From contig JANNXQ010000170.1 in assembly GCA_031409655.1 (NCBI GenBank), positions 24,499-88,498 of the forward strand: DNA of 64,000 nt, read 5' to 3'. Of this stretch, positions 33,959 to 51,670 are shown piece by piece (positions within the stretch are counted from its first letter, which is position 1; each line of letters starts with the position of its first letter). Under the pieces are notes generated by a model. The model did not search any database. It saw only the letters and a program-made list of their open reading frames with translations, and was not told where the DNA came from. The stretch is from Chthoniobacteraceae bacterium. GTDB lineage: Bacteria; Verrucomicrobiota; Verrucomicrobiia; Chthoniobacterales; Chthoniobacteraceae. Position numbers and translations under genes: made by a program.

Positions 33959-33993
33959 TTCCCCGGCCTGCTCCACTTCCCTTCCCGAAACCT

Positions 33994-36900
33994 ATGAGAC
34001 GCTCCTTCCTATTTCCCGCCTTACTCTCTGCGCTTGCGGCCCTGCACGTCCCGGCCCGTGCCGCGCTCGATATTGGGCCCGGTGGTGGTCCCGGCGACGG
34101 CGTACCGGACGTTTGGGCAGCCGTCACCGGCTACACTGGCGACGGTGCATCTTTATCCGCCGACAGCGATGGGGACGGGCAGACCAATGGAGCCGAGGCG
34201 GCTGCGGGGACGAATCCCAACGCTTCGGGAGACGTCATCGCCATCAAGAGCCTGACCCCCGCCGGGGCCAACCTGAAAATCGATTTCCCGGGAATCGGTG
34301 GAAAAAAGTATCAGATGCAAAGCTCGCCGACCCTTTCCCCTGCGAATTTTACCAACGTGCCGCAAGCTGCGGGGACGGTAGTCGCCACCGCAGATGCAAA
34401 TATCCAAGTGACCTTACCAATGGGCGCCGGGTCCAAATACTACCGGGTCGTGGTCTCGGACATCGACACCGACAGTGATGGCCTGACCGATTACGAAGAA
34501 CGCAAAATCGGACTGAATCCTCTCTTGCCAGATATCATCGGCGGTTTGAGCGGTGTCGCCTACGTGAGCGGCCAACTCGCTCTCCCGGATGTGGTGACAG
34601 TTGTCGCCACGGATGCCACGGCGTCGGAGGATGGTTCTGATTTCGGAAGCTTCATGGTGGAGCGGACCCGCAACCTCTTTACCATCGATGTCCCCTACAC
34701 GGTTTCAGGAACCGCTACACCTGGCGTGGATTACCAGTCTCTGGGAGGATCGGTGCATCTGATGTTGGGTGAAAACACCGCTTCATTCAACATTGTGCCA
34801 ACGTCCGAGCCGACGAATGTCGTTGAAAGTGGAGAGTCCGTGACGGTCACCCTTGCAAATCCATCACTGGTCTATTCACTTGGCACGCCTAGTTCGGCAA
34901 CCGTGATCATTGGCGAAACCACCGCCACGAGTGGGACTGGTCTGATGGCTCGTTACTACGACACCGCGAGCGGCAACTACAGCCGACCGGAAAACTTCGG
35001 CACCGTTTCGAGTTATACCTACACAAGGCTAACCGCGGCCACCGGGACGGCAACGATCGCCTACACCGCGACGCCCGCACTTTCTGTGGGACACCAGGTG
35101 AACGTGGCCTTTACAGCCGGCAACCTCAATAACGTGCTCTACAGCCCGCTGCTCTACACCGTGACGGGAGTTACTCCGACGAATTTCACGGTGGCGATTG
35201 CCGGCACCGCCTTGCCGACCAACCAAACTACGGCGTCGTCCTGCGTCATTAGCATCACCAGCTTCCCGCACCCGGCGGTCATCACTCAGGTGGATCCGAC
35301 GGTGAATTTTGATTGGCAGCACGGGACGCCAAATGGCGTGGTGATCCTGCCAAACAATTCTCCGGACAATTACTCCGCGTCTTGGGATGCGTATCTCCAA
35401 CCGACGACTGCTGGGAACTATATTTTCCAGCTTGATGCGGATGACAAAGCGCGGGTGCTGCTCGATACCGGGGCGGGTTTGGTGCAGATCCTCGAGCACG
35501 GTTGGGATGGCCCGGCCACAATTGGAACCTTTAAGCAGAGTGCGCCGATCGCCCTCTCGGTGCCGGGATCTCCATCCGCGCGCTACCACATTCGGGTGGA
35601 GCATGTGGAAACCACGGGTAATGCACGGTGCAGGCTGCAGTGGAGCGCGAACGGTGGCACCACTTTCGCCAATATCGCGCAGGCAAATCAGTTCACTCAT
35701 ACCCAGGCAATAACTTATAGCTATACGCAAGCCACGGGTGATGTGGTCGTCACTCCTACGGGCGGACATCTTTTCGTGGGTGGCGAAGTCGTCAATCTGA
35801 CGATGTCATCAGGAAACCTGTTCCTCCCGATCAGCTACAGTGGACCGTACACGATCACGGCCGTCAGCGGAACCAGCACTTTCACCGTGAATATCACCGG
35901 GACTGGCTTGCCAGCCACTGGCACAGGTTCAGGCTTTCTGGAAAACGCGGCCAGCACCACGACGGGTCTATTCAACCGCACCTATGCAAACACGGCCTTC
36001 ACCAGTCCTCCGGGACGCGTTGGCGTGGACGCTGCAGTTACTACTGGGAATAATGGCATCTGGAATACCGGAACGCCCGACGTGAATCTCATCCGGCCGG
36101 AGACCTTTTCAGTTCGGTGGACCGGTCAGGTGCAACCTCAATTCTCCGAGGAGTACACCCTCGTGGTGGGGGCCGATGATGGTTGCGCCTTGCGGATCAA
36201 CGGGCAGTCGCAAATCCTTAGGACGATTCCTTCCGCGAGCACCAGTGGTAGCACCTACCTCTATGACGCCGGCTCCGGAAATGCGGTGGTCTCCTACCCG
36301 GCTTTGATCGTATCTCCTGGCAGCTTTATCGTAGGGGAGTCCGTGCGGCTTGATCCCAGCAGCGGCAGTCTTTCCCATGCCCCCGCCAGTCCGCCCACCT
36401 ACCGCTTCGATGACGTTACTGGGGACGTCGTTATTAACTACGCGAACCTGACGAACGTGACGCCGGGCGGCTTTGTCGTTGGAGAAACGATCGAACTGGA
36501 CCCTACCAGCGGCAGTCTCAGCGCTCTGGGTCTCCTCCCGTATACCATTACTGCCGCCACGGCGAACACCATCACGGTCAACTCCGGCGGGCTGGGTTTT
36601 AATCCGAGGATGAGCGTCGCGGCCATCTCCGTTGGACCTGCTTGTGAGATCACCACTGTGCAGAATCACGGCTTGAGCGTCGGCAGCGAGCTGAGGATTT
36701 CCTCGGTCGCCACCGGGATTTTCTCACCGGATATCAACAGCCTTTATACGGTGGTCGCGGTTGTCAGTCCGACTAAGTTCACCGTGGCTTCAAACTGCAC
36801 GGTCGCTCCCACTGCTGGCACCGGAGTGGTAATCGTATCGGGCAATATCGCTATCAGCGACAATCGGAATGCGGTCATCACCGCGGCCACGCCCACCACC

Positions 36901-39900
36901 TTCACGGTCAATATGGGCGCGAACAAGTATGCCAATGCCAGCGCGGGCAACGTAAGCATTGATATTGTCAATAAGCCGCTCAAGGACTGGTCTTCGAGCG
37001 CCAACGAACGTTTCGTCCATGTTCCGATGATTGGCGGGGTGCGTTACGACATTCAACTCGATTACTACGAGAGCACGAGTGCCGCGAAGTGCCAGCTCTC
37101 GTGGTATAGCCCCAGCCAGCCCCGGCAGATTATCCCGAGCAATCGGCTCTACCCAACATCCACGCCTGCCTCCCCGCTCGCTCCACCAATTCTCCTCAGT
37201 CCGACTTCGGCGGTGGCCTTGGTTGGCGGTGCGTTCTCCTATGCAGTGGTCGGCAGTAATGGCGCTACGGTCACGGTCAGTGGTAACCCGGCTTGGTTGA
37301 CCTACAGCGGTGGCGTCCTCAGTGGCACGCCGCCTCCTGGAACGGCTGGGCACTACCAGATCGTGGTCACAACTACCGGACCAGCAGGGACTGGGATGTC
37401 GGTCATCGAACTCGACGTTCAGGATACCGGTGGGGTGATTGCGCGGGAATATTGGAATGGTGTCGAGGGAACGACCATCGCGACGATCCCGACCGGTGCG
37501 GTCCCGACGGGCTCCGGGGATCTTTCACAGCTTGCTGCTCCGACCGACTTCGGAGACAACTATGGCGCGCGGATCCGCGGCTATATCACCGCGCCCGTCA
37601 CGGGAAATTACTACTTCTGGATCTCCGCCAGCAACGCTGCGGAACTCTGGATCGCCAATGATGATGAACCGATCAACACCTTCAAGCGCGCGTCGGTGAC
37701 GACCGGTAACACCACTCCACAAACGTGGGTTGGTGAAGCAAATCAGAAGTCCGCCTGGCTGGCTCTGGAAGCCGGTCAAAGATATTATATCGAGATCCTC
37801 CACAAAGCCGGCTCCGGTGCTGGGGACAATCTCGCAGTCGGCTGGCTCAAACCTGGCGAATCCGGCGCCCTCCCGAGTGAAGTGGTGCCTGGCTATGTGC
37901 TCTCGCCGTATGTCGCGCCGTCGTTGCAATCGATCCCCGGGACGCTCTACGTGGCGACCATGCTCTCGCAGAACGGTGCGGCGACCAGCGGTGTGGGCAC
38001 GTCCACCCTTCGCCTGAGTGCGGACGAGACGACGGTCATCATGGGCTACAGTTACAGGGGCCTGACGGGTCCGATCACCTCGCAGCACATTCACACTGAT
38101 CCCTACCTCTTAAAGCCATCGGAGATCGTCTTCGACATCGATACGCCCGAGACGGCGGGGGATGGCTTGATCCTCACGGGTCCTGACGCTGGAAAGTATA
38201 AATGGACGATCAAAGATCGAGGAAGCCTCACCGCCCCGGAGATCCGCGAGATCATCAAGCAGGGCAAAGCCTACATCAATTTGCATACCGCAATGTTTCC
38301 GGCAGGCGAAATACGCGGTAACTATACGTTAGCGAACGGCTCGCGCCTGTTCACCCCGCCGCCGGCGCCTCCGGCTCTCGCCGACGATCATGCGACCAAC
38401 AACGGAGCCTCCCGCTTCCTCACGCAGGCGACGTTTGGGCCAAATCCTGCCGATATCGCGGCGCTGAAAGCGATGGCCAGTTACGATGCCTGGATCAATG
38501 ACCAGTTCACGAGGCCAGTGAGCTACACCTTGCCCGAAGTCATCAGGACCGAAAATGCGAGCGCCCAAGGTGCCGCGTTCGATGAAACGCTGGCTTTCAA
38601 TGCGTGGTGGAAGAGTGCCGTTTCTGCCCCGGACCAGCTCCGGCAGCGAATCGCTTATGCATTAAGCCAGATCCACGTCGTATCAGCGCAGGGACCACTC
38701 GACAACCGTGCAGAAGCCTTGGCCTATTACTACGACCATCTCGTCAATCACGCTTTCGGCAACTTCCGCGACCTCCTCCAAGCGACGACGCTCACGCCGG
38801 CCATGGGGCGTTACCTTGACATGAAGGAAAACGACAAGCCTGACCTAACGGTGGGGCGCATTCCGAACGAAAACTATGCTCGTGAGATCCTGCAGTTGTT
38901 CGACCTCGGACTTTTCCGGCTGTGGCCAGATGGCACGTTGATGCTGAATTCGAAGGACGAATTGATCCCCACCTACACCCAGCGTGAGATCGTCGGTTTT
39001 GCCCACCTCTTCACTGGCTGGGACGACGGATACGATGGAGCCTTCCGGACGACGCTCGGTGCAGCGACCAATTACACCCGCCCGATGCGGGAGGTGCCCG
39101 CCCGCCATTTCACCGGACCGAAGCGCGTGCTGAACAATGAAGTCCTGCCCGGACTTCAGCAGTTGGGCGGTCAGCCGCTCGACCCTTACGCCACTCATAA
39201 CGCGACGCAATTCAACGATCCATCCTACCAGGCACTTCCTGGGTTGGAACTCGCCGTTTCCCATCAGCAGCTTTTCGAGCACCCGAATGTTGGTCCCTTC
39301 ATCTGTCGCCAGCTCATTCAGAGGATGGTGATGAGCAATCCTTCCCGCGACTACTTGTACCGGGTCGTCCAAAAATTCAACAATAACGGCGCGGGGGTGC
39401 GCGGCGATCTGAAAGCAGTCATCAAGGCGATCCTCCTCGACTACGAAGCCCGCAGTAGCTCGGAAACAACGAAGCCGATCTATGGAAAGCAGCGGGAACC
39501 GGTGCTCCGCGTCGCCGCAGCGGGACGGGCTTTCCGGCAGGCCGCTTGGACCGGAACCTACACGCAGAGCGCCTCACCGAGCAGCACGTCACGGACGATT
39601 ACGGTCAGCACCTCGACGGCCCACAAACTAGTCACCGGTAACAATGTGTTTCTCGACTTTTCCGACACTACGGGAGACGTCGCCAAACCCGCGCCGTGGA
39701 TCGGTACTTACTCGGCAACCGTCACGGGAAACAATACGTTCACGGTTCAGGCGAACGGATGGGCCACCGGAACTTATAACATCCCGGCGAATTCCACTGT
39801 GTGTACCGTAAGTATGGGCAGCCATTGGCTCGAAGCGACTGAACAGGCGTACTTCGACTTTACCAGCGGACCCGCGGACGGCCTCGCCGGTTTCGATAAC

Positions 39901-40944
39901 ACCGTGCATCCGGCGGTCACGTCGAACGCCAGTAATACTGTTGCCGGTACGACTTTCACGATCACCGTTCCGACGTCAGCTAGCGCGCGGTCCGGCAACG
40001 TGATGATCCCGCGATTCGCACCGGGCAGCTACACCACCTCGGCTTCGGGTCTCGCGGCACCGCGAGACCGCCGTGTGACGATGGATACCAATTTCGACCA
40101 TCACCTCAAAGTCGGTGATCAGGTGCAAATTAACTTCTTCCAAGGTAATCCCCTGCCTGTTGACATGGTAGCTACCGTAGAATCCGTCGTGGACATGAAC
40201 ACTTGGACTTTCCTCGCGCCATCGCTCGGAACGAATCTCGGAACCAACCAAGGGAACAACAATGTCTATCAGTTCCCGCTGCTCGCTCAACCGTTGACTC
40301 GGAGTGGGACCGTGGGTTCACGCCCGAGCACGTTCAACATGGGCAACACTGAAGGGGATATGGACCAGGCTCCGTTGAACTCTCCGACCGTGTTTAACTT
40401 CTATCTGCCGGACTACAAGTTCCCTGGAGCGCTTGCCTCGCAGGGCATCACGACTCCCGAGTTCCAGGAAACGGCTGAGACTTCGGTCATCCGCCAGGCG
40501 AACTTCTTAGAGCGCGGCATCTACGCACTGGGAAACACCAATGGCGTAAGCAGCTTCAAGAACGGCACCAATGCATTGGTCATGGATTTGAGCCCGTGGA
40601 TGGCGAACGCGGTCGGTACCGTTTCGCCAGGTCTGGAGCTTGGAGCCGGCACCAGCACCACGCGGCCTTGGACGCACGATCAAAACCTCAGCGTTCTCAT
40701 CGACCGTTTCAGTACGGTGCTTCTTGGTGCGGCTTTGCCCGCGGCTGTGAAGACCCAAATCACAACCTTCGTCCAGACACGCACAAATATGGGTTCTGCC
40801 TATAATCAATTCACTAATCCTTACACCAATATTCCCTACAATAACTCGGGCACAACGACTGCGACCGATCCCGAGAAGACTAATCGCATCCGGGCAATTC
40901 TGCACCTCATCCTCACCTCCCCCGACTTCACCATCCAGCGCTAA
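33994..40944 (+). CDS. giant secreted multidomain protein 1: Ca-binding motifs / Calx-beta / 3x PA14-like / Ig-like / CHRD / C-terminal DUF1800
   Basis: ORF 33898..40944 trimmed to ATG 33994, where a Sec-type signal peptide starts (MRRSFLFPALLSALAALHVPARA|AL). 2316 aa. Domain order recognised by eye; see the domain features. Confidence 0.9.
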   Translation: MRRSFLFPALLSALAALHVPARAALDIGPGGGPGDGVPDVWAAVTGYTGDGASLSADSDGDGQTNGAEAAAGTNPNASGDVIAIKSLTPAGANLKIDFPGIGGKKYQMQSSPTLSPANFTNVPQAAGTVVATADANIQVTLPMGAGSKYYRVVVSDIDTDSDGLTDYEERKIGLNPLLPDIIGGLSGVAYVSGQLALPDVVTVVATDATASEDGSDFGSFMVERTRNLFTIDVPYTVSGTATPGVDYQSLGGSVHLMLGENTASFNIVPTSEPTNVVESGESVTVTLANPSLVYSLGTPSSATVIIGETTATSGTGLMARYYDTASGNYSRPENFGTVSSYTYTRLTAATGTATIAYTATPALSVGHQVNVAFTAGNLNNVLYSPLLYTVTGVTPTNFTVAIAGTALPTNQTTASSCVISITSFPHPAVITQVDPTVNFDWQHGTPNGVVILPNNSPDNYSASWDAYLQPTTAGNYIFQLDADDKARVLLDTGAGLVQILEHGWDGPATIGTFKQSAPIALSVPGSPSARYHIRVEHVETTGNARCRLQWSANGGTTFANIAQANQFTHTQAITYSYTQATGDVVVTPTGGHLFVGGEVVNLTMSSGNLFLPISYSGPYTITAVSGTSTFTVNITGTGLPATGTGSGFLENAASTTTGLFNRTYANTAFTSPPGRVGVDAAVTTGNNGIWNTGTPDVNLIRPETFSVRWTGQVQPQFSEEYTLVVGADDGCALRINGQSQILRTIPSASTSGSTYLYDAGSGNAVVSYPALIVSPGSFIVGESVRLDPSSGSLSHAPASPPTYRFDDVTGDVVINYANLTNVTPGGFVVGETIELDPTSGSLSALGLLPYTITAATANTITVNSGGLGFNPRMSVAAISVGPACEITTVQNHGLSVGSELRISSVATGIFSPDINSLYTVVAVVSPTKFTVASNCTVAPTAGTGVVIVSGNIAISDNRNAVITAATPTTFTVNMGANKYANASAGNVSIDIVNKPLKDWSSSANERFVHVPMIGGVRYDIQLDYYESTSAAKCQLSWYSPSQPRQIIPSNRLYPTSTPASPLAPPILLSPTSAVALVGGAFSYAVVGSNGATVTVSGNPAWLTYSGGVLSGTPPPGTAGHYQIVVTTTGPAGTGMSVIELDVQDTGGVIAREYWNGVEGTTIATIPTGAVPTGSGDLSQLAAPTDFGDNYGARIRGYITAPVTGNYYFWISASNAAELWIANDDEPINTFKRASVTTGNTTPQTWVGEANQKSAWLALEAGQRYYIEILHKAGSGAGDNLAVGWLKPGESGALPSEVVPGYVLSPYVAPSLQSIPGTLYVATMLSQNGAATSGVGTSTLRLSADETTVIMGYSYRGLTGPITSQHIHTDPYLLKPSEIVFDIDTPETAGDGLILTGPDAGKYKWTIKDRGSLTAPEIREIIKQGKAYINLHTAMFPAGEIRGNYTLANGSRLFTPPPAPPALADDHATNNGASRFLTQATFGPNPADIAALKAMASYDAWINDQFTRPVSYTLPEVIRTENASAQGAAFDETLAFNAWWKSAVSAPDQLRQRIAYALSQIHVVSAQGPLDNRAEALAYYYDHLVNHAFGNFRDLLQATTLTPAMGRYLDMKENDKPDLTVGRIPNENYAREILQLFDLGLFRLWPDGTLMLNSKDELIPTYTQREIVGFAHLFTGWDDGYDGAFRTTLGAATNYTRPMREVPARHFTGPKRVLNNEVLPGLQQLGGQPLDPYATHNATQFNDPSYQALPGLELAVSHQQLFEHPNVGPFICRQLIQRMVMSNPSRDYLYRVVQKFNNNGAGVRGDLKAVIKAILLDYEARSSSETTKPIYGKQREPVLRVAAAGRAFRQAAWTGTYTQSASPSSTSRTITVSTSTAHKLVTGNNVFLDFSDTTGDVAKPAPWIGTYSATVTGNNTFTVQANGWATGTYNIPANSTVCTVSMGSHWLEATEQAYFDFTSGPADGLAGFDNTVHPAVTSNASNTVAGTTFTITVPTSASARSGNVMIPRFAPGSYTTSASGLAAPRDRRVTMDTNFDHHLKVGDQVQINFFQGNPLPVDMVATVESVVDMNTWTFLAPSLGTNLGTNQGNNNVYQFPLLAQPLTRSGTVGSRPSTFNMGNTEGDMDQAPLNSPTVFNFYLPDYKFPGALASQGITTPEFQETAETSVIRQANFLERGIYALGNTNGVSSFKNGTNALVMDLSPWMANAVGTVSPGLELGAGTSTTRPWTHDQNLSVLIDRFSTVLLGAALPAAVKTQITTFVQTRTNMGSAYNQFTNPYTNIPYNNSGTTTATDPEKTNRIRAILHLILTSPDFTIQR
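34588..34863 (+). other. Calx-beta domain (giant protein 1)
   Basis: VVTVVATDATASEDGSDFGSFMVERT...YTVSGTATPGVDYQSLGGSVHLMLGENTASFNIVP...ESVTVTL is the canonical Calx-beta pattern. Confidence 0.75.
34933..35658 (+). other. PA14-like domain 1, interrupted near its N-terminus by a ~65-aa module
   Basis: GLMARYYD...[insert]...VDPTVNFDW...DNYSASWDAYLQPTTAGNYIFQLDADDKARVLLD...YHIRVEHVETTGNARCRLQWS. Confidence 0.7.
35965..37116 (+). other. PA14-like domain 2, split by a ~247-aa insertion (about 36226-36966)
   Basis: The N-part is GLFNRTYANTAF...FSVRWTGQVQPQFSEEYTLVVGADDGCALRINGQ. The C-part is ERFVHVPMIGGVRYDIQLDYYESTSAAKCQLSWYSPS. Confidence 0.7.
37435..37860 (+). other. PA14/GLEYA-like domain 3
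   Basis: VIAREYWNGVEG...DNYGARIRGYITAPVTGNYYFWISASNAAELWIANDD...GQRYYIEILHKAGSGAGDNLAVGWLKPGE. Confidence 0.65.
37939..38331 (+). other. CHRD domain
   Basis: LYVATMLSQNGAATSGVGTSTLRLSADETTVIMGYSYRGLTGPITSQHIH...GKAYINLHTAMFPAGEIRGN is the CHRD pattern (AHIH ... YVNVHT..P.GEIRG). Confidence 0.7.
38404..40941 (+). other. DUF1800 domain carrying a ~258-aa internal insertion (about 39547-40320)
   Basis: ASRFLTQATFGP, LRQRIAYALSQIHVVS, FGNFRDLL..TLTPAMGRYLD, PNENYAREILQLFDLGL, YTQREIVGFAHLFTGW, HPNVGPFICRQLIQRMV and terminal LILTSPDFTIQR. Confidence 0.75.
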
Positions 40945-40949
40945 GCCCT

Positions 40950-42443: not shown

Positions 42444-42471
42444 ATCAGCTATGCACTGAGGTGCATTGATT
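42443..42471 (+). terminator. weak hairpin directly after the DUF1501-1 stop
   Basis: ATGCAC-TGAG-GTGCAT is a 6-bp stem, extended by AATCA/TGATT across a 3-nt bulge and followed by a single extra T. It is AT-rich and has no clear U-tract. Confidence 0.3.
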
Positions 42472-42689
42472 TCCCTGGGGGAGATTCCTTGATCGTCTGT
42501 AGCCAAAGCAGTTGGGGAAAAGGCTTGGGTTCTTAGTTGCACGTTGGGCGATCACACGTACCAAAAAAAGTCCGCGGTGACACGACTTTTGCAGGAGAAT
42601 TAGTCCGGGCCAGCGTTTTTCGTAGATGAGTCCAAATGTCACGATTTCAAGGGATTCTTCTTGCTTAAGGACACGAAAATGTTGAAATA

Positions 42690-42701
42690 TTTATCTTCAC
42701 G
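42690..42701 (+). promoter_or_regulatory. conserved leader motif TTTATCTTCACG upstream of giant gene 2
   Basis: 12/12 identical to 33947-33958. A second shared block, TTCAA(A/G)..GGATT.CT, lies at 42646-42661 and 33877-33891. Confidence 0.4.
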
Positions 42702-42761
42702 CAAAGTCCCCCCTTGGGAGATCGGACCGTGAATCGCCCTTTCCGAAGTTACCCCAGTTCC

Positions 42762-45700
42762 ATGAGCCGATTCACTCGCTTCCTTGCCGCACTTGCGGCT
42801 TCTTTTGCGTTAATTCCAACCGGCCGGGCCGCTCTGGACGTATCGCCAGCCGACGGAATCCCCGATATCTGGGCGCTCGTCCAGGGTGTCAGCGTGCTCA
42901 CCCCAGCAGGAGATGACGACGGCGATGGGCAGACGAATGTGGCCGAGGCTGCCGCCGGTACCAATCCGAAGAACGCCACCGAAGTTCTCAAGATCAAGAG
43001 CATCACGAAAAGCGGGAGCAATGTGACGCTGATCTTCCCGGCGATCTTATCGAAGAAATATGAGGTGCAAGGGGCGACAACTCTCACGACGACTCCCCCA
43101 ACGAATTTCGTGACGATCGGTTCCCCATTTGTTCCCGGGGCCGACGGTGATTACACGGCTGTCGTTGCTGCCGGTAGCGCCAAATTCTTCAGGGTTCTGG
43201 TCTCCGATTTGGATACCGATAACGATGGTCTTTCAAATTACGAGGAGCGGATGATCGGCCTGAATCCGCTCCTCGCTGATAGCGATGGCGACACGGTCAG
43301 CGACCTGAATTATGTTACCGCGCAGCTTGCCCTGGCAGATACGCTCTCCATCCGCGCCTTGGAGTCGATCGCCTCGGAGGACGGTCCGACTTCCGGCGAA
43401 TTCGAGGTTTACCGCAGTCGTAGTCTCTTCACCATCAACGTGCCTTACGACGTTGGTGGCACGGCTACGGTCTCCACGGATTACGCAGCATTGGCGGGTT
43501 CGGTTACGCTCGCCCGCACCTTCACGTCAGCGAAGTTTAACGTAAATCCAAACCCCGATAGCATCGTGGAAGGAAGTGAGTCCGTGCAGGTCACGCTGAC
43601 GCCGCCGCCGGGGGGCCTCAGCAGCCAGTACCTGCTGGGTAGCCCAAGTGTCGCAACGGTTATTATTACCGACAAGACGACGCCCGTTGGGACGGGCCTC
43701 ACCGCGCGGTACTATGACCATGCCAACACCATCTACGCGCACGCCGCCAACTTTGGTGACGCTGCGAGCTACGCTTACACCCGGTCCGGCACGACGCCGA
43801 ACTTCACCGGCTCTGTCGTCATTACGCCGACCGGATTGACGCCGGACCGGCTGACCACGGTCCTGGCGGCGGTCACGGTGAACGGCCAGGTGAAGCTCTC
43901 TTTCAACGGAGGCAACCTGAATACTGCCGTTTACAACCACCAGAACTACACTGTGACGGCGAAGAACGCGACGAGCTTCACGTGCACGGTGCCTCCTGGC
44001 GCATCTCTCCCGGGAAGCAGCAGCAGCACCTGCAATTTCAGTATCCAACCCCTCCACCCAGCGGTGATCGACCGCATCGATACGGTGGTCAACAATGACT
44101 GGGCCTACGGTACACCGAATGGAGTGACGTTGGCGACTCACGGCGCTCCTCGCCTGGCCAATTTCCCGGACGATTACTCCGCGTCGTTTGAGACTTATCT
44201 GGTGCCAACTACGACAGGTTCTTACCGTTTCCAGTTCGATGCGGATGACAAAGCCAGGGTCTTGCTCGATACCGGGAGCGGCTTGGTGGAGATCCTCGAG
44301 CACGGCTGGGACGGCGCCACCACGCCGGAGACCATCGGTGTTTTCAAGGTGAGCGCCGCGTCCTATACCCTCACCGCAGGTCAGCGCTACAAGATGCGCG
44401 TGGAGCATGTCGAGACGACCGGCGATGCGCGTTGCCGTCTGCAATGGAGCCGGGACTTGGGCGGTTTTGTCAACATCCCTCAGGCCGAGCAGATCACGCA
44501 AACGCAGGCGGCCACTTATGTGTTTAACAAGCTGACGACGACTACCGGCACGGCCGTCATCACCCTCACGTCGCATGGCTTGAACAATGGCGACCCTGTC
44601 ACGCTCGCGTTCTCCACAAGCAACCTCTTCACGCCGGCAAGCTATAGTGGCAATTACACCGTCGCCAATGCCACGACGAATACCTTCGAGGTGGCGATTG
44701 CGGATCCCGTTGCGGTGCCGAACACGGTCGCGGCGGGCCAGGGTTGTTTTCTCGAAAATCGGCCCCTGAGCACCACGACCGGCGTGTTCAATAGGACTTA
44801 CGCGGGCACCGCATTTGCCGGATTCCCGCTGCGAGTTGGTGTCGATGGCGCGGTCACGACCGGAAACAACGGCATTTGGGGTTCAGGCACGCCTGATGTG
44901 GGCCTTGTTTCCCCCAGCACGTACATCAATCCCGACACCTTCTCGATTCGCTGGACGGGCCAGGTGCAGCCACAGTTCACGGAAGAGTACACCTTCGTGG
45001 TTCATGCGGATGAAGGCAGCACCCTCAAGATCAACGGCCAGACGCAGGAGATGCAGGCGGCTCCGTCCTCGATCGTGGGCGGCAGCACCTACCTCTATGA
45101 CAACGCGACCGGCAATACGGTCATCAACTACTCTGGGAATGCGGTCAAGCCGGGCGGGTTTATCGTTGGTGAAACGATCAGGCTTGATCCCAGCACCGGC
45201 AACCTGACCCATCCCAATGGCAGCACCTACAGCTACGACTCCGTCACGGGCCTGGCCGTGATTGACTTCTCCAATCTGACATCTGTCCTGCCGAACGGCT
45301 TCGGCGTCGGACGGATTGTGGAAATCGACCCGACTGGGGGCACCGCTTCGGCCTTGGCGAATGCGCGCTACACGATTACCGCGGCGACTGCGACCACCTT
45401 CACGGTGAGCTTTGGCGTTGGCGCGTTTGCGCCGCAGGCTGTGGCACCCACGGCCACCATCAATGTGACTGACAACAGGAATGCAGTCATCACGGCAGTT
45501 CACGCCACCGGCACCGGCACGTACGCCTACAGTTCCACCACGGGCGATGCTGTCATCGACTACACGGGCCTGGGCATTCCCAATAATACCGTCACCGTCG
45601 GCCAGAGCGTGGCGCTCGACCCTAGCAGCGGCAATCTGAGTACCTTGCCCAACGCATTTGCGACGGTCACCGCTGCGACGGCGACTACGTTCACCGTGAA

Positions 45701-48700
45701 CTACGGCACCAGTTTCACGACCGGCAACGGCAACGTCGTTATCATTGCGCCATCCAACGGTTTGGTCGATCCGGCCGTGACTACGGCTTTCACCGTCAAT
45801 TTTGAACCGGCCAAGTATGCCAACGCTAGCATTGGCACTATGAACGTGGAGGTCATCAATAAGCCGCTCAAAGAGTGGTCCTCGATGGGCAATGAGCGTT
45901 ACGTGCGCATCCCTGTCGTCGGCGGCACGCGGTATGACATCCAGCTCGATACGTATGAGAATACGAGCTATGCGCGGGCCATTCTTTATTGGTACAGCCC
46001 CAGCCAGACGAAACAGGTCATCCCGACGGAGCGTCTTTATCCCACCTCAGTGCCACAGGCTCCGGTGGCACACGCTGGTGCGACAGAGGCTGCCGCAGTC
46101 GTCGGCTCGGCCTTCAACTATTTGGTGGGCGGAACCAATGGCAGCTCGGTCACCGTCTCCGGGCTCCCGGCCGGGCTGACCTACAACGCCGGGGTCATCA
46201 GTGGCACGGCGACAACCGCAGGCGATTATCAAGTCCTGCTCACGATCACGAACGGTGTGGGTACGAGCACCTCGGTTCTCAATCTGCATGTGGAAGCGCC
46301 GGCCGGCTCCATCGTGCGCGAACATTGGAACGGCGTCGCGGGAACGGCAGTGGCGAATCTTTCCACGGAAATTGCGGCTGGCACACCGCCGACGGGCACG
46401 ACGAACCTTAGCTCTTTGGAAGGACCGACCGACTTCGGCGACAATTATGGCGCTCGCATTCGCGGTTACATCACCGCTCCGGTCACCGGCAATTACTACT
46501 TCTGGATCGCGGCCAGCAATGCCGCCGAGCTTTGGATTTCCAATGATGACGAGCCGGTCAGCGCGCTGAAGCGGGCTTCGGTGGCGACTGGTAACACGAC
46601 GCCTCGTACGTGGAGCGGCGAAGTGAAACAGAAATCGCCGTGGCTCGCTCTGGAGGCCGGGCAAAGGTATTACGTCGAAATCCTGCACAAGGCCGGAACA
46701 GGCGCAGGCGACAACCTCGCGGTCGGCTGGCGCAAGCCGGGCGAGACCGGCACCGCGCCGAGCGAAGTCGTGCCTGGGAATGTGCTCTCTCCGTATGTGG
46801 CACCGGCACCGGGCTCGACCCCTGGCACCCTCTACGTAGCCACGATGCTGGCGCAGAACGGCGCGGTGACCAAGGGCGTGGGAGTGGCCACTTTCCGCCT
46901 GAGCGACGATGACAATGTGGCCTACATCAAGTTTGACCGGCAGGGATTCCTGAACCCGCCTTATAATGGCCTGACGGGAATAATGACGGATTGGCACGTG
47001 CATAACGATCCGTATCTCACCCGCCCTTCGAGCATTATGTTCGATCCGAATGCCCCGCCCGCCAACAGTGGCTTGCAGCCGGACGGCAGCTTTAAGTGGA
47101 CGATACCCAACCTGGTTGGAACGATTCCCAAGGCCGAAGTCGTGGAACTGATCAAGCAGGGTAAGGCTTACATCAATATCCATACTACGGCTTATCTGAA
47201 TGGAGAAATCCGCGGCAACTTCACCTTGGCCAGCGGCACCCGCACCTTCACCCCGCCGCCGGCGCCGCCGGCGTGGACCGACGACAGCAGCACTAATGAC
47301 GGAGCCTCCCGCTTCCTTGCGCAGGCTTCCTTTGGGGCTAACATCGCCGACATCACCGCTTTGAAGGCACTGGCAGCGACTGGCGCTGTTCCCACTGCGG
47401 GGATCCCGGCCAGCCGCTACGACAAGTGGATCGACAATCAGTTCCTCGTTGGCGCTACCCAGCATCTGCCGGAAGTTCTGGCGCGTGAGTATGGGAATGT
47501 GTTCGGCCCTTTTGATGTCTCGTTGAGTTTCAACGCTTGGTGGAAGGCATCGATGACCGCCCCGGATCAGCTCCGGCAGCGCGTGGCTTTCGCCTTGAGT
47601 GAGATTCACGTGGTCTCCGGTCAGGGGCCGCTGGAGGATAATGCCCGCGCCATTTCGGACTTTTACGACACGCTGGCTACCAATGCCTTCGGCAACTTCC
47701 GGGACATCGTGGTCGGCACCACTCTCACTCCGGGAATGGGTCGCTATCTGGATATGCTGCGCAACGACAAGCCCGATATCTCGGTCGGACGCAGCCCCAA
47801 TGAAAACTACGCCCGCGAGATCAAACAGCTTTTCACCATCGGACTCTACGAGATGTGGCCGGATGGCAGCTTGAAGCTCACCTCCAAGGATGCACCGATC
47901 GATACCTACACCCAGCGGGAGATTGTCGGCCTTTCGCATGTCTTCACCGGATGGGACTACGCGTACGACGGTGCTTACCGCACGGCGTTCGGTGCTACGG
48001 CGGACTGGACCCGGCCGATGCGCGAGATTCCCGCCCGGCACTTCACGGGTCAGAAGCGCGTCTTGAACAACGAGGTGCTGCCGGGGCTTTCTACGGTGGG
48101 TGGCCAGCCGTTGGATCCGAATGCGACCCATATCACCACGCATTTCAACGACCCCGCGTATCAGGCGCTCGCCGCGCAGGAACTCACCGCCGCGCATGAC
48201 ATGCTCTTCAATCATCCGAACGTCGGCCCGTTTATCTGCCGGCAGCTCATTCAGCGTCTGGTGACGGCCAACCCGTCGCGCGACTATCTCTATCGTGTAG
48301 TCCAGAAGTTCAATGACAATGGGTCGGGCGTGCGCGGGGACATGAAGGCAGTGATCAAAGCCATTCTGCTGGATTACGAAGCGCGGAGCACCGGTCAATT
48401 CGCGATCCCGGCTTACGGCAAACAGCGTGAACCGATCATGCGCGTCGCCCAAGCGGCCCGTGCGCTCCGGCCGAACAACGTGACCGGAACGTATACTCAG
48501 AATAACTCGAACCTGATCACCATCGCCACGAGCACTTCGCATCTGCTTACCGATGGGGAAAGCGTCTTCCTGGAGTTCGCCGATGCCACGGCGGCCGGAG
48601 CGCAACCCGCGCCGACCACTGGCTCGTACATTGTGAACGTCATCAATGCGACTTCCTACACCATCGACGCCCCGGGCTGGATGGTCGGATCCTACAATCA

Positions 48701-50177
48701 GTCGGCGGGCTCCAATGTGATGACCATCACGATGTCTGGGCATTATTTGCCCGGGAATAATGCCAACGTGATCCCGTCGGTCCAGGTGCTGCCAACTGCA
48801 AACAAGGGACAAGCCTATTTCGATTTCACCAGTGGCACAGCCAATGGCCTGGCTGGTTTCGACCAAACGGTCCGATCGGTCGCCACTTCCACGTCGTATG
48901 ATATCCCCAGCGCGGTAGGTAATACGGCAACGGCGCCCAACATCAATGGGAATGCCTCCGGGACGACCTTCACGATCACCGCGCCGGATACCACGGCGCG
49001 CAGTGGAAACCTGAGGGTCTCGCGCTTCCCCAGTAGCTACCAGAGCACGGGCCGGGCTGGCGTCATCACGATCGACACTTCATATGGTGGGTCCGGTACG
49101 TTCGGACAGCAGGCAGATCATGGACTGTCCGTTGGGGACGCCATGTTCCTCAATTTCTACGGATCGCGGGATACGACTTCGTTTAACGAAACCTCCACGG
49201 AGAACGATCTCGTCTATACCGTTGCGAGCGTTCCCGATGCGAATACCTTCACGGTCGCGGCACGGGATGCAGCCAATGCGGCGATGAACAGTGGCAACGA
49301 AGTCATCGTGTTCCCGCTCGAGGCGCAGCCTTTGGTTCGCAACGGGACAATCTCCGCGCGTCCCTCCACCTTTGCGATGAGCAACACGGACGGGGACCTT
49401 CAGCAGACGCCACTGAACTCGACGACGGTGTTCAACTTCTTCCTGCCCGACTACAAGTACGCCGGGACGCTGGCTTCGCAGGGCATCACCACTCCGGAGT
49501 TCCAGATCACGTCAGAGACCACGGCCATGCGTCAGGCAAACTTCCTCTTCAATGGTGTTTTCAATCCTTCAGGGAGCACCACCGGGGTCAGTAGCTTTAA
49601 GTCTGGAACTCACGCGTTGGTCATGGACCTGAGCCGTTGGATGAACGGCAACGCGGCAAACTTGGGCCTCGGCGTCCCAACCAGCACCTTGGTGCCGTGG
49701 ACGCAGAATCAAAACCTCGCTGAACTTATCAACCAGCTCAGTACGCTGCTGATGGCCGGGCGCCTGCCGCAACCGGCCAAGGATATCATCAAGAACTTCA
49801 TCGCCACGCCGATCACCTCCATCGGCACCGGCAATCCATGCTTGGTGACGACGACTGTTGCGCACGGGTTGAAGACTGGTGATGTCGTACTTGTCAGCGG
49901 CGTCGCGGACGGAACGTTTGGTGGTGTCGCAAACAGCTTGAATAACACGAACACCACGCGGGCCGTGACGGTGACGGGACCGACCGACGGAACCTCGACA
50001 ACGTTCACGATTCCGTTGAGTTGCACGATTGCCCCGACTGGTCTGACCAACGCCCATGTCTCGGTGATTCCCTACAATCAGGGTGACACGACTCCTAACG
50101 TCACCGACAAGCTCGGTCGCTTGCGCACCATCATCCATCTTATCCTCACCAGCCCCGATTACACCATCCAGCGATAG
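42762..50177 (+). CDS. giant secreted multidomain protein 2 (paralogue of protein 1, same domain order)
   Basis: ORF 42714..50177 (TTG) trimmed to ATG 42762, where the signal peptide starts (MSRFTRFLAALAASFALIPTGRA|AL). 2471 aa and collinear with protein 1. Confidence 0.9.
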   Translation: MSRFTRFLAALAASFALIPTGRAALDVSPADGIPDIWALVQGVSVLTPAGDDDGDGQTNVAEAAAGTNPKNATEVLKIKSITKSGSNVTLIFPAILSKKYEVQGATTLTTTPPTNFVTIGSPFVPGADGDYTAVVAAGSAKFFRVLVSDLDTDNDGLSNYEERMIGLNPLLADSDGDTVSDLNYVTAQLALADTLSIRALESIASEDGPTSGEFEVYRSRSLFTINVPYDVGGTATVSTDYAALAGSVTLARTFTSAKFNVNPNPDSIVEGSESVQVTLTPPPGGLSSQYLLGSPSVATVIITDKTTPVGTGLTARYYDHANTIYAHAANFGDAASYAYTRSGTTPNFTGSVVITPTGLTPDRLTTVLAAVTVNGQVKLSFNGGNLNTAVYNHQNYTVTAKNATSFTCTVPPGASLPGSSSSTCNFSIQPLHPAVIDRIDTVVNNDWAYGTPNGVTLATHGAPRLANFPDDYSASFETYLVPTTTGSYRFQFDADDKARVLLDTGSGLVEILEHGWDGATTPETIGVFKVSAASYTLTAGQRYKMRVEHVETTGDARCRLQWSRDLGGFVNIPQAEQITQTQAATYVFNKLTTTTGTAVITLTSHGLNNGDPVTLAFSTSNLFTPASYSGNYTVANATTNTFEVAIADPVAVPNTVAAGQGCFLENRPLSTTTGVFNRTYAGTAFAGFPLRVGVDGAVTTGNNGIWGSGTPDVGLVSPSTYINPDTFSIRWTGQVQPQFTEEYTFVVHADEGSTLKINGQTQEMQAAPSSIVGGSTYLYDNATGNTVINYSGNAVKPGGFIVGETIRLDPSTGNLTHPNGSTYSYDSVTGLAVIDFSNLTSVLPNGFGVGRIVEIDPTGGTASALANARYTITAATATTFTVSFGVGAFAPQAVAPTATINVTDNRNAVITAVHATGTGTYAYSSTTGDAVIDYTGLGIPNNTVTVGQSVALDPSSGNLSTLPNAFATVTAATATTFTVNYGTSFTTGNGNVVIIAPSNGLVDPAVTTAFTVNFEPAKYANASIGTMNVEVINKPLKEWSSMGNERYVRIPVVGGTRYDIQLDTYENTSYARAILYWYSPSQTKQVIPTERLYPTSVPQAPVAHAGATEAAAVVGSAFNYLVGGTNGSSVTVSGLPAGLTYNAGVISGTATTAGDYQVLLTITNGVGTSTSVLNLHVEAPAGSIVREHWNGVAGTAVANLSTEIAAGTPPTGTTNLSSLEGPTDFGDNYGARIRGYITAPVTGNYYFWIAASNAAELWISNDDEPVSALKRASVATGNTTPRTWSGEVKQKSPWLALEAGQRYYVEILHKAGTGAGDNLAVGWRKPGETGTAPSEVVPGNVLSPYVAPAPGSTPGTLYVATMLAQNGAVTKGVGVATFRLSDDDNVAYIKFDRQGFLNPPYNGLTGIMTDWHVHNDPYLTRPSSIMFDPNAPPANSGLQPDGSFKWTIPNLVGTIPKAEVVELIKQGKAYINIHTTAYLNGEIRGNFTLASGTRTFTPPPAPPAWTDDSSTNDGASRFLAQASFGANIADITALKALAATGAVPTAGIPASRYDKWIDNQFLVGATQHLPEVLAREYGNVFGPFDVSLSFNAWWKASMTAPDQLRQRVAFALSEIHVVSGQGPLEDNARAISDFYDTLATNAFGNFRDIVVGTTLTPGMGRYLDMLRNDKPDISVGRSPNENYAREIKQLFTIGLYEMWPDGSLKLTSKDAPIDTYTQREIVGLSHVFTGWDYAYDGAYRTAFGATADWTRPMREIPARHFTGQKRVLNNEVLPGLSTVGGQPLDPNATHITTHFNDPAYQALAAQELTAAHDMLFNHPNVGPFICRQLIQRLVTANPSRDYLYRVVQKFNDNGSGVRGDMKAVIKAILLDYEARSTGQFAIPAYGKQREPIMRVAQAARALRPNNVTGTYTQNNSNLITIATSTSHLLTDGESVFLEFADATAAGAQPAPTTGSYIVNVINATSYTIDAPGWMVGSYNQSAGSNVMTITMSGHYLPGNNANVIPSVQVLPTANKGQAYFDFTSGTANGLAGFDQTVRSVATSTSYDIPSAVGNTATAPNINGNASGTTFTITAPDTTARSGNLRVSRFPSSYQSTGRAGVITIDTSYGGSGTFGQQADHGLSVGDAMFLNFYGSRDTTSFNETSTENDLVYTVASVPDANTFTVAARDAANAAMNSGNEVIVFPLEAQPLVRNGTISARPSTFAMSNTDGDLQQTPLNSTTVFNFFLPDYKYAGTLASQGITTPEFQITSETTAMRQANFLFNGVFNPSGSTTGVSSFKSGTHALVMDLSRWMNGNAANLGLGVPTSTLVPWTQNQNLAELINQLSTLLMAGRLPQPAKDIIKNFIATPITSIGTGNPCLVTTTVAHGLKTGDVVLVSGVADGTFGGVANSLNNTNTTRAVTVTGPTDGTSTTFTIPLSCTIAPTGLTNAHVSVIPYNQGDTTPNVTDKLGRLRTIIHLILTSPDYTIQR
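43341..43605 (+). other. Calx-beta domain (giant protein 2)
   Basis: LSIRALESIASEDGPTSGEFEVYRS...YDVGGTATVSTDYAALAGSVTLARTFTSAKFNVNP...ESVQVTL. Confidence 0.75.
43689..44466 (+). other. PA14-like domain 1 with nested module
   Basis: GLTARYYDHAN...[insert]...IDTVVNNDW...DDYSASFETYLVPTTTGSYRFQFDADDKARVLLD...YKMRVEHVETTGDARCRLQWS. Confidence 0.7.
44781..46004 (+). other. PA14-like domain 2 split by a ~265-aa insertion (about 45059-45852)
   Basis: The N-part is GVFNRTYAGTAF...FSIRWTGQVQPQFTEEYTFVVHADEGSTLKINGQ. The C-part is ERYVRIPVVGGTRYDIQLDTYENTSYARAILYWYSPS. Confidence 0.7.
46308..46745 (+). other. PA14/GLEYA-like domain 3
   Basis: SIVREHWNGVAG...DNYGARIRGYITAPVTGNYYFWIAASNAAELWISNDD...GQRYYVEILHKAGTGAGDNLAVGWRKPGE. 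Confidence 0.65.
46824..47228 (+). other. CHRD domain
   Basis: LYVATMLAQNGAVTKGVGVATFRLSDDDNVAYIKF...TDWHVHNDP...GKAYINIHTTAYLNGEIRGN. Confidence 0.65.
47301..50174 (+). other. DUF1800 domain with a ~297-aa internal insertion (about 48478-49370) and an extra C-terminal module (49839-50024)
   Basis: ASRFLAQASFGA, LRQRVAFALSEIHVVS, FGNFRDIV..TLTPGMGRYLD, PNENYAREIKQLFTIGL, YTQREIVGLSHVFTGW, HPNVGPFICRQLIQRLV and terminal LILTSPDYTIQR. Confidence 0.75.
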
Positions 50178-50182
50178 CCCGT

Positions 50183-51670
50183 ATGAGAACCGACCAAGAT
50201 CCCAAACTTACGAATCGCAGAGATTTCATCCGGCAGGCCTCCTGTGCCGCAGTCGGCTCGCTGGCGCTCAAGAGCACCATCCGGGATCTGCGCCTGATCA
50301 ATTCCGCGCTCGCCGTGCAGCCCGCATTGACTGGCTACAAAGCACTGGTCTGCGTGTTTCTCAGTGGGGGAAATGACTCGAACAACTGGATCGTCCCGAC
50401 CGATCCTACGACGTTCGCGGATTACACCTCCATCCGCGGCAATCTCGCGCTCGCGCAGCCGTCTTTGCTCCCCTTGTGGGCGAACGCGGCTGGCACCATA
50501 CCCTACACGGACTCTGATGGTCACACGTATGGCTTCCATCCCAGTTGTCCGGAACTCCAGACCCTCTTTAAGGAAGACAAGCTGGCCGTAGTCCTCAATG
50601 TGGGAACCATCGTGCGCCCGACCACTCGCACACAGTATCTGTCCGGCCTCCAAGCGTATCGGCCGCCACAGCTTTTTTCGCACAGTGATCAGGTCACGCA
50701 GTGGCAAACCTCGATCCCCGACGTTCCCCCGACCACGGGGTGGGGCGGTCGTGTCGCCGATCTCGTCAATGCCGCAGCGTCGAATCCGTCGAATAGCATC
50801 TCCATGTCCGTCTCCGTCAGCGGGGCGAACACCTTCGAGATCGGAAACCTCATCTCACAATACCAAGTCTCCACCACCGGGGCAGTGGTCCTGACGGGAG
50901 ACACGCTGATGACGAGCGGCGGTCCACGTTCGCGCGCTTTCCAGGCGATCGCCCGTCTTTCCGACATCAATTTGCAGCGGACGGCAGTGGCCGATGTGAC
51001 CAAGAATGCGATCGCAAAGGGCGATCTGCTCAACGCCAACATTTCTGACACAGCGCTCGATACGTATTGGAATGTTCCATTCCCCAATACGACCCTTGGC
51101 AATGAATTGAAGATGGTCGCCCGCCTGATCCAGGCGCGCGGATCGACGAAATTCAACATGAAGCGTCAGATCTTCTTCACGTCGGTCGGCGGGTACGACA
51201 CGCATACTTCGCAGGTCTCGGTGAATGGACAAGACCAGCCGGAGAGCCCGCAGGGCGCACATTACCGGCTCCTCGATGAGGTGAGCTCCTGTATGTTCGC
51301 GTTCCAGCGCGCGATGGAACAACTTGGCGAGTCGAACAATGTCACGGCATTCACGGCCAGCGATTTTGCCCGCACCCTTCCGACCAACAGCCAGGGCAGC
51401 GATCATGGCTGGGGCGGTCATCACATCATCGTGGGTGGCGCAGGCGGTGCCACAGGCGCAGTGAAGGGCGGGAAGACCTACGGCCAACTGCCCGTGTTGG
51501 CGATCAATGGCCCGAATGACACCGGCCTGGGCCGCTGGATCCCGACCATTGCGGTCGATCAACATGCGGCCACGCTGGCGAAATGGTTCGGCGTGGATTC
51601 AACGGAGATGGATGCCATTTTCCCGAATCTAAATCGTTTCTCGACTCGAGATCTGCTCTTCATGGCCTGA
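50183..51670 (+). CDS. Tat-exported DUF1501 protein, partner of giant protein 2
   Basis: Twin-arginine motif NRRDFIR. Motifs FLSGGNDSNN, LFSHSDQ, VGGYDTHTSQ and GSDHGWGGHH. The ATG is 5 nt after the giant-gene stop. Confidence 0.85.
   Translation: MRTDQDPKLTNRRDFIRQASCAAVGSLALKSTIRDLRLINSALAVQPALTGYKALVCVFLSGGNDSNNWIVPTDPTTFADYTSIRGNLALAQPSLLPLWANAAGTIPYTDSDGHTYGFHPSCPELQTLFKEDKLAVVLNVGTIVRPTTRTQYLSGLQAYRPPQLFSHSDQVTQWQTSIPDVPPTTGWGGRVADLVNAAASNPSNSISMSVSVSGANTFEIGNLISQYQVSTTGAVVLTGDTLMTSGGPRSRAFQAIARLSDINLQRTAVADVTKNAIAKGDLLNANISDTALDTYWNVPFPNTTLGNELKMVARLIQARGSTKFNMKRQIFFTSVGGYDTHTSQVSVNGQDQPESPQGAHYRLLDEVSSCMFAFQRAMEQLGESNNVTAFTASDFARTLPTNSQGSDHGWGGHHIIVGGAGGATGAVKGGKTYGQLPVLAINGPNDTGLGRWIPTIAVDQHAATLAKWFGVDSTEMDAIFPNLNRFSTRDLLFMA

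Follow-up and report, generated by a model that had tools for sequence, protein, structure and literature searches.

Tandem paralogous DUF1800-DUF1501 modules with giant multidomain DUF1800 proteins in a Chthoniobacteraceae bacterium

The stretch of DNA analyzed here (the window; 64,000 nucleotides of contig JANNXQ010000170.1 from a Chthoniobacteraceae bacterium) carries two paralogous two-gene units and a single gene C common to both, in the order A1-B1-A2-B2-C. Each A gene encodes a giant protein ending in a DUF1800 domain, and each B gene encodes a DUF1501 protein. We read the module as a conserved cell-envelope operon of the Verrucomicrobiota, of which the window has two tandem copies, old paralogues of each other with a single gene C for both. 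As a variant of the known DUF1800-DUF1501 pair that is spread across the lineage, it is no unique element.

Genes of the module and the build of proteins A and B

The two consecutive units proposed in the initial annotation were recovered, with the same gene boundaries, from the list of open reading frames and their translations, and the distance from A stop to B start is 5 nucleotides (nt) in A1-B1 and A2-B2 alike. The genes are as follows (lengths in amino acids, aa):

33994..40944, + strand: gene A1, 2316 aa (open reading frame, translation and Pfam), identical to database protein P0001
40950..42443, + strand: gene B1, 497 aa, DUF1501 protein exported by the twin-arginine (Tat) route as judged by its motif, intact reading frame
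42762..50177, + strand: gene A2, 2471 aa, paralogue of A1 with the same domain order, identical to database protein P0087
50183..51670, + strand: gene B2, 495 aa, DUF1501 protein and paralogue of B1, likewise Tat-exported as judged by its motif, intact reading frame
51817..52422, + strand: gene C, 201 aa, directly 3' of B2, with no counterpart after B1

All four A and B genes are intact, and the A1 count of 2316 aa starts at the Met preceding the Sec-type signal. An 18.6-kb Logan contig from run SRR20217191 (L013) corresponds to window DNA at about 32850-50400 and encodes A1, B1 and A2 with 100% identity; the organism was therefore sampled in that run too. The gene call on this contig places the A1 start 32 codons earlier, giving 2348 aa compared to 2316 aa in the NCBI call. 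An antisense open frame of 939 aa lies inside A2 (46047-48866, - strand), and further antisense frames of 150 to 350 aa lie opposite A1, A2, B1 and B2; all are almost certainly noncoding shadows of long GC-rich genes. An Rfam scan of 33000-53000 gave no match at E≤1, and a promoter and terminator scan of 33400-53000 gave results at or below the expectation from shuffled sequence.

Protein A is best described, by analogy with the same modules elsewhere, as a predicted Sec-exported string of potentially glycan- or Ca-binding units that ends in a helical DUF1800 domain. The set in A1 comprises a Sec signal, two TSP3 repeats, a Calx-beta-like domain, three PA14 domains with GLEYA, a He_PIG-like immunoglobulin (Ig) domain, CHRD and a split DUF1800 domain, and the Pfam set of A2 is the same. 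The features of A1 are placed as follows:

33994..34062, + strand: Sec-type signal peptide MRRSFLFPALLSALAALHVPARA, read off the translation; an equivalent N-terminus is kept in A2 and homologues
34162..34221, + strand: first TSP3-type Ca-binding repeat (DSDGDGQTN...), from Pfam TSP3_bac and motif positions
34600..34917, + strand: Calx-beta-like domain (Pfam, 22.6 bits, under the 27-bit cut-off)
34939..35661, + strand: PA14 domain 1 (Pfam PA14 at residues 423-556), with one nested beta module of about 50 aa at residues 353-402
36061..37143, + strand: PA14 domain 2, limits approximate (Pfam PA14 in two stretches)
37183..37389, + strand: He_PIG-type Ig-like domain, borderline (23.1 bits against a 24-bit cut-off, E 1e-4)
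37519..37866, + strand: PA14 domain 3, overlapping GLEYA (PA14 E 1e-10 and GLEYA E 9.1e-7 in a piecewise scan)
37972..38322, + strand: CHRD domain, immediately before DUF1800 (Pfam E 9e-12 in the whole protein, 1.5e-13 in the piece)
38413..39543, + strand: N-terminal helical part of DUF1800 (profile positions 1-310, residues 1474-1845; Pfam 229.5 bits; helical in the AlphaFold2 model)
39544..40338, + strand: all-beta insert within DUF1800 (strands only in the AlphaFold2 model; small beta-barrel modules)
40357..40932, + strand: C-terminal helical part of DUF1800 (profile positions 323-418, last 197 residues; 23.3 bits when scanned alone)

The Sec signal and two D-x-D-x-D-G motifs initially annotated in A were read in the translation, a motif scan found the latter again, and TSP3_bac matched A1 in two stretches (E 2.8e-10), the second repeat beginning at residue 158 (DTDSDGLTDYEE). 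The annotated domain order stood for the three PA14 domains, CHRD and DUF1800, all of which exceed their Pfam cut-offs: PA14 (PF07691, 24 bits) with 112.1 bits in A1 and 122.5 bits in A2, in three stretches each; CHRD (PF07452, 24.1 bits) with 46.3 and 36.4 bits; and DUF1800 (PF08811, 26.1 bits) with 243.2 bits (E 7.7e-72) and 204.7 bits. The whole-protein values for A1 are E 2.5e-32 for PA14 and 1.5e-6 for GLEYA. Calx-beta passes its cut-off only in A2 (28.7 bits), and He_PIG lies just below in A1; PF05345 (He_PIG) is recorded for many A homologues.

The DUF1800 end, which had been called complete, does match the profile over positions 1-310 and 323-418, with the correction that a beta-rich insert of about 270 to 300 aa splits it. 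The AlphaFold2 model of A1 residues 1451-2316 (50 homologues; mean predicted local distance difference test score [pLDDT] 78, predicted template modeling score [pTM] 0.80) shows a helical part, an all-beta insert at model residues 403-660, mostly at pLDDT of about 90, and a helical C-terminal part. When this model was compared with the Protein Data Bank (PDB) by Foldseek, the helical domain had no relative (template modeling [TM] score ≤0.12), and the partial matches were of beta modules to the phage endosialidase beta-barrel, phage depolymerases and E1 FCCH. The insert itself gave weak Pfam matches only (End_beta_barrel at E 0.015, E1_FCCH and DUF5666 weaker), and sequence and profile searches of the PDB with the DUF1800 region returned chance-level matches only.

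A small beta module of about 50 aa, with the pattern ..hGxxVxh...Y.V..h....FTV, occurs in about eight full or partial copies per A protein. It lies within PA14-1, between PA14-1 and PA14-2, within PA14-2, which is split by an insert with four matches (two full, two partial), and within DUF1800. Its E-values come from a hidden Markov model (HMM) trained on six A1 copies and hence are no independent test; its likeness to the endosialidase beta-barrel, E1 FCCH and DUF5666 is weak, none of them reaching the Pfam cut-off. The copies located by this HMM are as follows:

A1 small beta modules: residues 353-402, 584-634, 773-973, 1869-1920 and 2028-2075
A2 small beta modules: residues 370-409, 599-646, 795-980, 1919-1970, 2117-2167 and 2362-2417, the last being one additional copy near the C-terminus

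Protein B matches DUF1501 (PF07394) over the 27-bit cut-off, with 90.5 bits (E 1.6e-25) in B1 and 71.7 bits (E 8.5e-20) in B2, over profile positions 2-342 of 390; Pfam thereby bore out both family assignments, DUF1800 and DUF1501. NCBIfam gave no match for A1, A2, B1 or B2. The export signal is placed as follows:

40950..41084, + strand: twin-arginine leader of B1 (..STRRDFIRQASCAAVGTWAITS..AVA), read off the sequence

The twin-arginine signal and the motifs GGND, SHSDQ, GGYDTH and SDHGWG, annotated at the outset for both B copies, are indeed present and invariant in 66 homologues. The Tat motif reads TRRDFIRQ in B1 and NRRDFIRQ in B2, with R12 and R13 invariant among those homologues. GGND, PPQLFSHSDQVTQW, GG[YF]DTHT, SDF.RT and GSDH[GA]WG.H are unchanged even in B paralogues of 44 to 52% identity, and D64, S165/S167, D347, H349, D415, H416 and H421 are invariant candidate active-site residues. 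The motif order (GGND ... GGYDTH ... SDHG) presumably corresponds to the metal-ligand Asp/His motifs of a two-metal site of the alkaline-phosphatase superfamily.

Membership of DUF1501 in that superfamily had been stated as known. The AlphaFold2 model of B (mean pLDDT 68, pTM 0.74) agrees in that its best 50 Foldseek matches in the PDB all belong there, among them GALNS and other sulfatases, LtaS, GacH, NPP/autotaxin and alkaline phosphatase; these matches are weak (best E 2.9e-3, TM 0.13 to 0.33), and no match by sequence or profile accompanied them. B also differs from the characterized members (type I sulfatases, NPP/autotaxin, alkaline phosphatase and LtaS/GacH) in lacking C/SxPxR and in its constant DUF1800 partner. 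A classical sulfatase is ruled out because B1 and B2 have no C/S-x-P-x-R formylglycine motif; there is also no PF00884 match. B1 residues 159-193 (window about 41424-41528; PPQLFSHSDQVTQWQTSIPD..GWGGR, nearly all invariant) are at once the most conserved and the least confidently modeled stretch of the protein; going by the model, such a loop would fit ordering only with metal or with the DUF1800 partner.

Relatives, paralogy and partner genes

A search with A1 returned at least 199 clusters at 90% identity with E≤1e-10. The best 120 of these are 1,978 to 2,824 aa long and 47 to 63% identical to A1 (whose own entry is excluded), and all combine CHRD, PA14 and DUF1800. The named matches are all from Verrucomicrobiota (Prosthecobacter, Verrucomicrobiaceae and Chthoniobacteraceae) and are labeled just "DUF1800 family protein." Given this number of clusters and the lineage of the named ones, the giant fusion is a family trait and not peculiar to the window, contrary to the special place first given to it. 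The seven related loci that come from GTDB species genomes are metagenome-assembled genomes (MAGs) of Verrucomicrobiota throughout. Three A homologues bear non-MAG NCBI/UniRef Prosthecobacter names, which suggests isolate genomes.

For gene context we examined 14 related loci (L001 to L015 minus L013), about 13 of them independent, since L007 and L009 are near-duplicates with identical coordinates. A and B adjoin each other throughout, in the window as well as in each of the 13 independent related loci, with spacers of 5 to 30 nt; the adjacency of DUF1800 and DUF1501 genes noted at the outset is thus constant.

The initial annotation also stressed duplication of the whole A-B unit. The paralogues are real: A1 and A2 share 53% identity over about 2,390 aligned positions and B1 and B2 share 65%, both far beyond chance. 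The nearest relatives are P0002 for A1 (63%), P0105 for A2 (84%), P0121 for B1 (92%) and P0223 for B2 (96%). Because each of the four proteins is closer to an outside relative than to its paralogue in the window, the two units are old paralogous lineages, and a recent tandem duplication is ruled out. Tandem modules also recur in five other loci, with these layouts:

L004 and L005: A-B-C-A'
L003: A-B-C-D-A'
L014 (closest relative of A1): A-B-A'-B'
L015: A-B-A'-B'-C'-C-Aldedh

The second A' protein of L015 consists of CHRD and DUF1800 only (1227 aa), with the PA14 arrays missing; since CHRD-DUF1800 is kept there without them, it is the core of the protein. Across 17 modules the identity of the DUF1800 core to A1 tracks that of the cognate B to B1 (Pearson 0.88, Spearman 0.60); shared phylogeny is a confounder here, and the correlation owes its strength to two divergent modules. 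The A' proteins that diverge most adjoin the B' proteins that diverge most. This pattern would fit inheritance of A and B as units.

C and D are previously unremarked partner genes of the A-B module. Gene C (about 180 to 220 aa) follows A-B in all related loci save L014, whose stretch ends right after the second B. A membrane helix at the N-terminus is followed by a Pro-rich linker of about 90 aa and then by a conserved, divergent GspG-like domain of about 100 aa (52120-52419 in the window), which is rich in invariant residues in an alignment of 12 copies. The Pfam family T2SSG matches 17 of 45 family members at E≤1, the best at 6e-4, with no Pfam match for the window copy. An hhalign comparison of the gene C family with the genuine T2SSG protein of L010 gave a probability of 70% and E 4e-5, and the alignment includes the W-G-x-x-Y...S-A-G-P-D...D-D end. 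The C-terminal 90 aa or so of gene C align with the globular domain of GspG (PF08334), but gene C differs in having a plain membrane helix and Pro-rich linker and in belonging to the A-B operon rather than to a secretion cluster. The prepilin leader G-F-T-L-x-E is absent from all 12 aligned copies, which begin with plain hydrophobic helices (MKAKVILLVLVLGGIVLW...). Searches of the PDB by sequence and profile with gene C gave chance-level matches only. The family comprises 1,442 clusters at 50% identity with E≤1e-3. We note that gene C carried no Pfam annotation in any related locus where it was called, and that P0505, a distant member, sits on a 1.8-kb contig that is uninformative about its neighbors.

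Gene D adjoins the module, on either strand, in 9 of the 12 non-window loci scanned with tblastn (L001 to L012, near-duplicates L007 and L009 included), and it is absent from the entire 64-kb window. It encodes about 425 aa with a signal peptide and the invariant residues C69, C145-P-x-H148, C160-x-x-C163 and C407. The CPxHP...CxxC motif resembles that of the heavy-metal-binding domain (HMBD, PF19335), which a few members match. Examples, each annotated as a hypothetical protein, are as follows:

L001:19493-20773: gene D
L002:19247-20521: gene D
Seven other loci: gene D

With gene C in the related loci and gene D in most of those scanned, the two-component machine envisaged in the initial annotation does not hold.

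Genomic surroundings

Upstream of the module, on the opposite strand and divergent, lies a locus for glycan synthesis and ATP-binding cassette (ABC) export, containing an ABC-2 permease and ATPase, GT2 and GT4 glycosyltransferases, an acyltransferase and a HAD-UbiA fusion. The fused HAD-hydrolase/UbiA-prenyltransferase gene (20425-21963, - strand) lies next to two GT4, Acyl_transf_3 and ABC-2 exporter genes, a neighborhood that resembles a lipid-linked glycan pathway and appears unrelated to the A-B module. Significance had been attached to this 33-kb locus as a neighbor. Since it is divergent, on the opposite strand and a neighbor in none of the related loci examined, a functional link to the module is unsupported, and we set it aside.

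Downstream are genes for aldehyde dehydrogenase, an Aas-like acyltransferase/AMP-ligase, a major facilitator superfamily (MFS) transporter, MutS, pyruvyl transferase and HisG. The aldehyde dehydrogenase gene follows gene C in the window (52456-54021, + strand) and recurs in L015 (L015:21787-23310), and it is the sole flanking gene seen in common; the first A protein of L015 is 63% identical to A2. A divergent pair at 54126-57717 consists of an Aas-like acyltransferase/AMP-binding fusion (- strand, 788 aa) and an MFS transporter (+ strand, 425 aa). It resembles the lysophospholipid transporter/acyl-ACP synthetase pair of Gram-negative bacteria, and we count it as housekeeping outside the A-B module.

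In the related loci the flanks vary. Sulfatases and GSDH lie beside the module in L001, type II secretion system (T2SS) genes in L002 and L010, and MbnP, MauG and YHYH genes in L002, and two-component systems flank it in L001 and L011.

Comparison with known systems and a proposed role

A DUF1800-DUF1501 two-gene operon is known and unexplained, for example beside horizontally transferred bacterial chitin-synthase genes (Goncalves et al. 2016, PMC5122149). The module shares with it both families, the order of DUF1800 before DUF1501, the tight spacing and the twin-arginine leader on DUF1501. It differs in that the DUF1800 protein here has about 2,300 to 2,500 aa, of which about 1,450 aa of TSP3, Calx-beta, PA14, Ig and CHRD domains precede DUF1800, and in its beta insert of about 270 to 300 aa, the conserved gene C and (elsewhere) gene D, and the tandem modules.

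DUF1501 genes also lie beside large exported PSCyt/PSD partners with carbohydrate-binding modules, PA14 included, in bacteria of the Planctomycetes-Verrucomicrobia-Chlamydiae group (PMC3542564; He et al. 2017, 10.1101/150078). The PSCyt/PSD (DUF1549/DUF1553)-DUF1501 modules of Planctomycetota and Verrucomicrobiota resemble the present one in the exported DUF1501 protein (Tat or signal peptide), in a large exported partner that often has carbohydrate-binding modules and in having numerous paralogues within a genome. Here DUF1800 takes the place of PSCyt/PSD domains in the partner, and no PSCyt or PSD Pfam domain matched A or B. The CxxCH heme motif is absent from A1, A2, B1 and B2, and for that reason a cytochrome-type module is ruled out.

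PA14/GLEYA domains are the lectin domains of the yeast Flo/Epa adhesins. Human chordin CHRD domains are SOD-like barrels that bind sulfated glycosaminoglycans (2026; PMC13382577). Protein A contains one CHRD and three PA14 domains over Pfam cut-offs, with GLEYA matching one of the latter as well, but small beta modules are nested among them and they are joined to DUF1800.

Our preferred reading, tentative and with a little less than even confidence, is that the module forms an exported multicomponent glycan-targeting scaffold with a metalloenzyme, in which A captures an anionic polymer, B acts with the DUF1800 end, and C and D assist. In such a scheme B would fold in the cytoplasm, possibly with metals, leave it through Tat and then act together with CHRD-DUF1800 at the end of its own A partner. 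An anionic glycan in polymeric or particulate form, for instance a polysaccharide with phospho or sulfo substituents, would be caught by the lectin-type arrays and CHRD of A, and B would cleave or transfer the group that is ester-linked to it. The role suggested for C, and for D in loci that have it, is to anchor or build the complex at the inner membrane or to connect it with secretion or a supply of metal. Each of the two paralogous modules most likely has its own substrate. We infer the A-B contact, the substrate class and the type of reaction; domain content, export signals, conservation and co-inheritance are observed. PA14/GLEYA, Calx-beta, TSP3 and CHRD modules, which bind glycans or Ca in other proteins, support this reading, as does the weak likeness of the DUF1800 insert to the endosialidase beta-barrel domain. 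Further points in its favor are the constant A-B adjacency and joint divergence, the retention of CHRD-DUF1800 in L015, the invariant twin-arginine and other motifs of B, its Foldseek matches, the carbohydrate-binding partners of other DUF1501 proteins, and the conservation of C and D.

Several points weigh against this reading. The structural likeness of B to the alkaline-phosphatase superfamily is weak, as given above; PDB sequence and profile searches with B gave chance-level matches only, and with hhalign the B profile did not match a sulfatase from L001. B residues 151-200, which hold the invariant SHSDQ, are modeled at pLDDT 33 to 57 (means of 10-residue blocks), so that a putative nucleophile is not assignable. 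The superfamily includes transferases and mutases, and hydrolysis by B is therefore not implied. PA14, Calx-beta and Ig modules occur in adhesins too and can bind proteins, and the destination of A, as far as its sequence tells, may be the periplasm, the surface or the medium. Since the flanking genes differ among loci, context gives no pointer to a substrate, and the A/B identity correlation carries the confounding described above. Among the papers found that mention DUF1800, DUF1501 or their accessions, no title or abstract concerns the giant fusion or the function of either family, and the passages on these families in the papers looked at more closely describe neither, in keeping with the initial statement that neither has an assigned function; biochemical or genetic data on the two families did not turn up there.

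Among the alternatives, it is unlikely that B is instead a polymer-decorating transferase, which, like LtaS, GacH, OpgB or BcsG, would add a phospho-substituent (e.g., phosphoglycerol or phosphoethanolamine) to periplasmic or surface polysaccharide belonging to the cell itself, with A holding the polymer. Foldseek aligned the B model over nearly its full length with LtaS and GacH only (about 490 columns, TM 0.27 to 0.33), and the window has a locus for glycan biosynthesis and ABC export beside the module, but the structural matches are weak and that locus is divergent and a neighbor in no related locus. Known LtaS/GacH-type transferases have N-terminal membrane domains that reach the lipid donor, but B, by its motifs, is a soluble Tat substrate without a membrane domain. 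DUF1800-DUF1501 pairs accompany chitin-synthase operons in Proteobacteria (PMC5122149), which speaks for the transferase.

It is likewise improbable that A is a surface lectin or adhesin for algae, particles or cells, with DUF1800 anchoring or processing it and B as a maturation factor. Large adhesins typically have TSP3, Calx-beta, PA14/GLEYA and Ig-like domains along with many small beta modules, the composition of A is high in Thr, Ser, Gly, Ala and Asn and very low in Cys, type II secretion genes lie beside two related loci, and gene C is pseudopilin-like. The C-terminus of A, however, is the conserved DUF1800 end, in which no known surface-anchor signal was seen, and the strict pairing with an enzyme-like Tat substrate, together with the retention of CHRD-DUF1800 in L015, argues that the C-terminal end rather than the lectin arrays is the core.

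Least probable is that the module serves to take up or process a metal, copper for instance, or to run a redox reaction, as might be supposed by analogy with the PSCyt/PSD-DUF1501 modules: the CHRD fold is Cu,Zn-superoxide-dismutase-like (PMC13382577), the A CHRD has nearly invariant His residues (HxH...NxHT), D has its invariant CPxHP...CxxC with a few members matching PF19335, MbnP, CCP_MauG and YHYH genes flank L002, and electron transport was proposed for DUF1501 modules (Kamneva et al. 2012, PMC3542564), but A and B have no CxxCH heme motif, copper-related neighbors occur in 1 of 13 independent loci, D is missing from the window and in L001 and L002 matches HMBD only at E of about 1, and chordin CHRD domains do not keep the His residues with which SOD binds metal (PMC13382577).

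Beyond the scaffold-and-metalloenzyme reading lies a bolder joint claim, which we consider unlikely as a whole: that DUF1800 and DUF1501 form an obligate two-subunit extracytoplasmic enzyme of an undescribed kind in which the helical DUF1800 domain completes or gates the alkaline-phosphatase-fold active site, within a four-part A-B-C-D envelope machine that would process anionic polysaccharides independently of classical sulfatases and glycoside hydrolases. There, A would be the multivalent glycan-capturing scaffold, B the catalytic subunit, C an inner-membrane pseudopilin-like tether and D a metal protein with Cys motifs.

DUF1800 and DUF1501 are large families without an assigned function. 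Planctomycetota and Verrucomicrobiota, phyla of importance to the turnover of polysaccharides in aquatic and soil habitats, have DUF1501 among their most expanded families. The giant fusion is an unusually direct clue to the target of the pair, with PA14 arrays and CHRD fused to DUF1800 and CHRD-DUF1800 as the minimal core, and the partners C and D widen the DUF1800-DUF1501 system. If the Prosthecobacter homologues come from isolates, the A-B interaction, metals, substrates and deletion phenotypes would be directly testable, and a functional result would be transferable to thousands of unannotated DUF1800/DUF1501 pairs.

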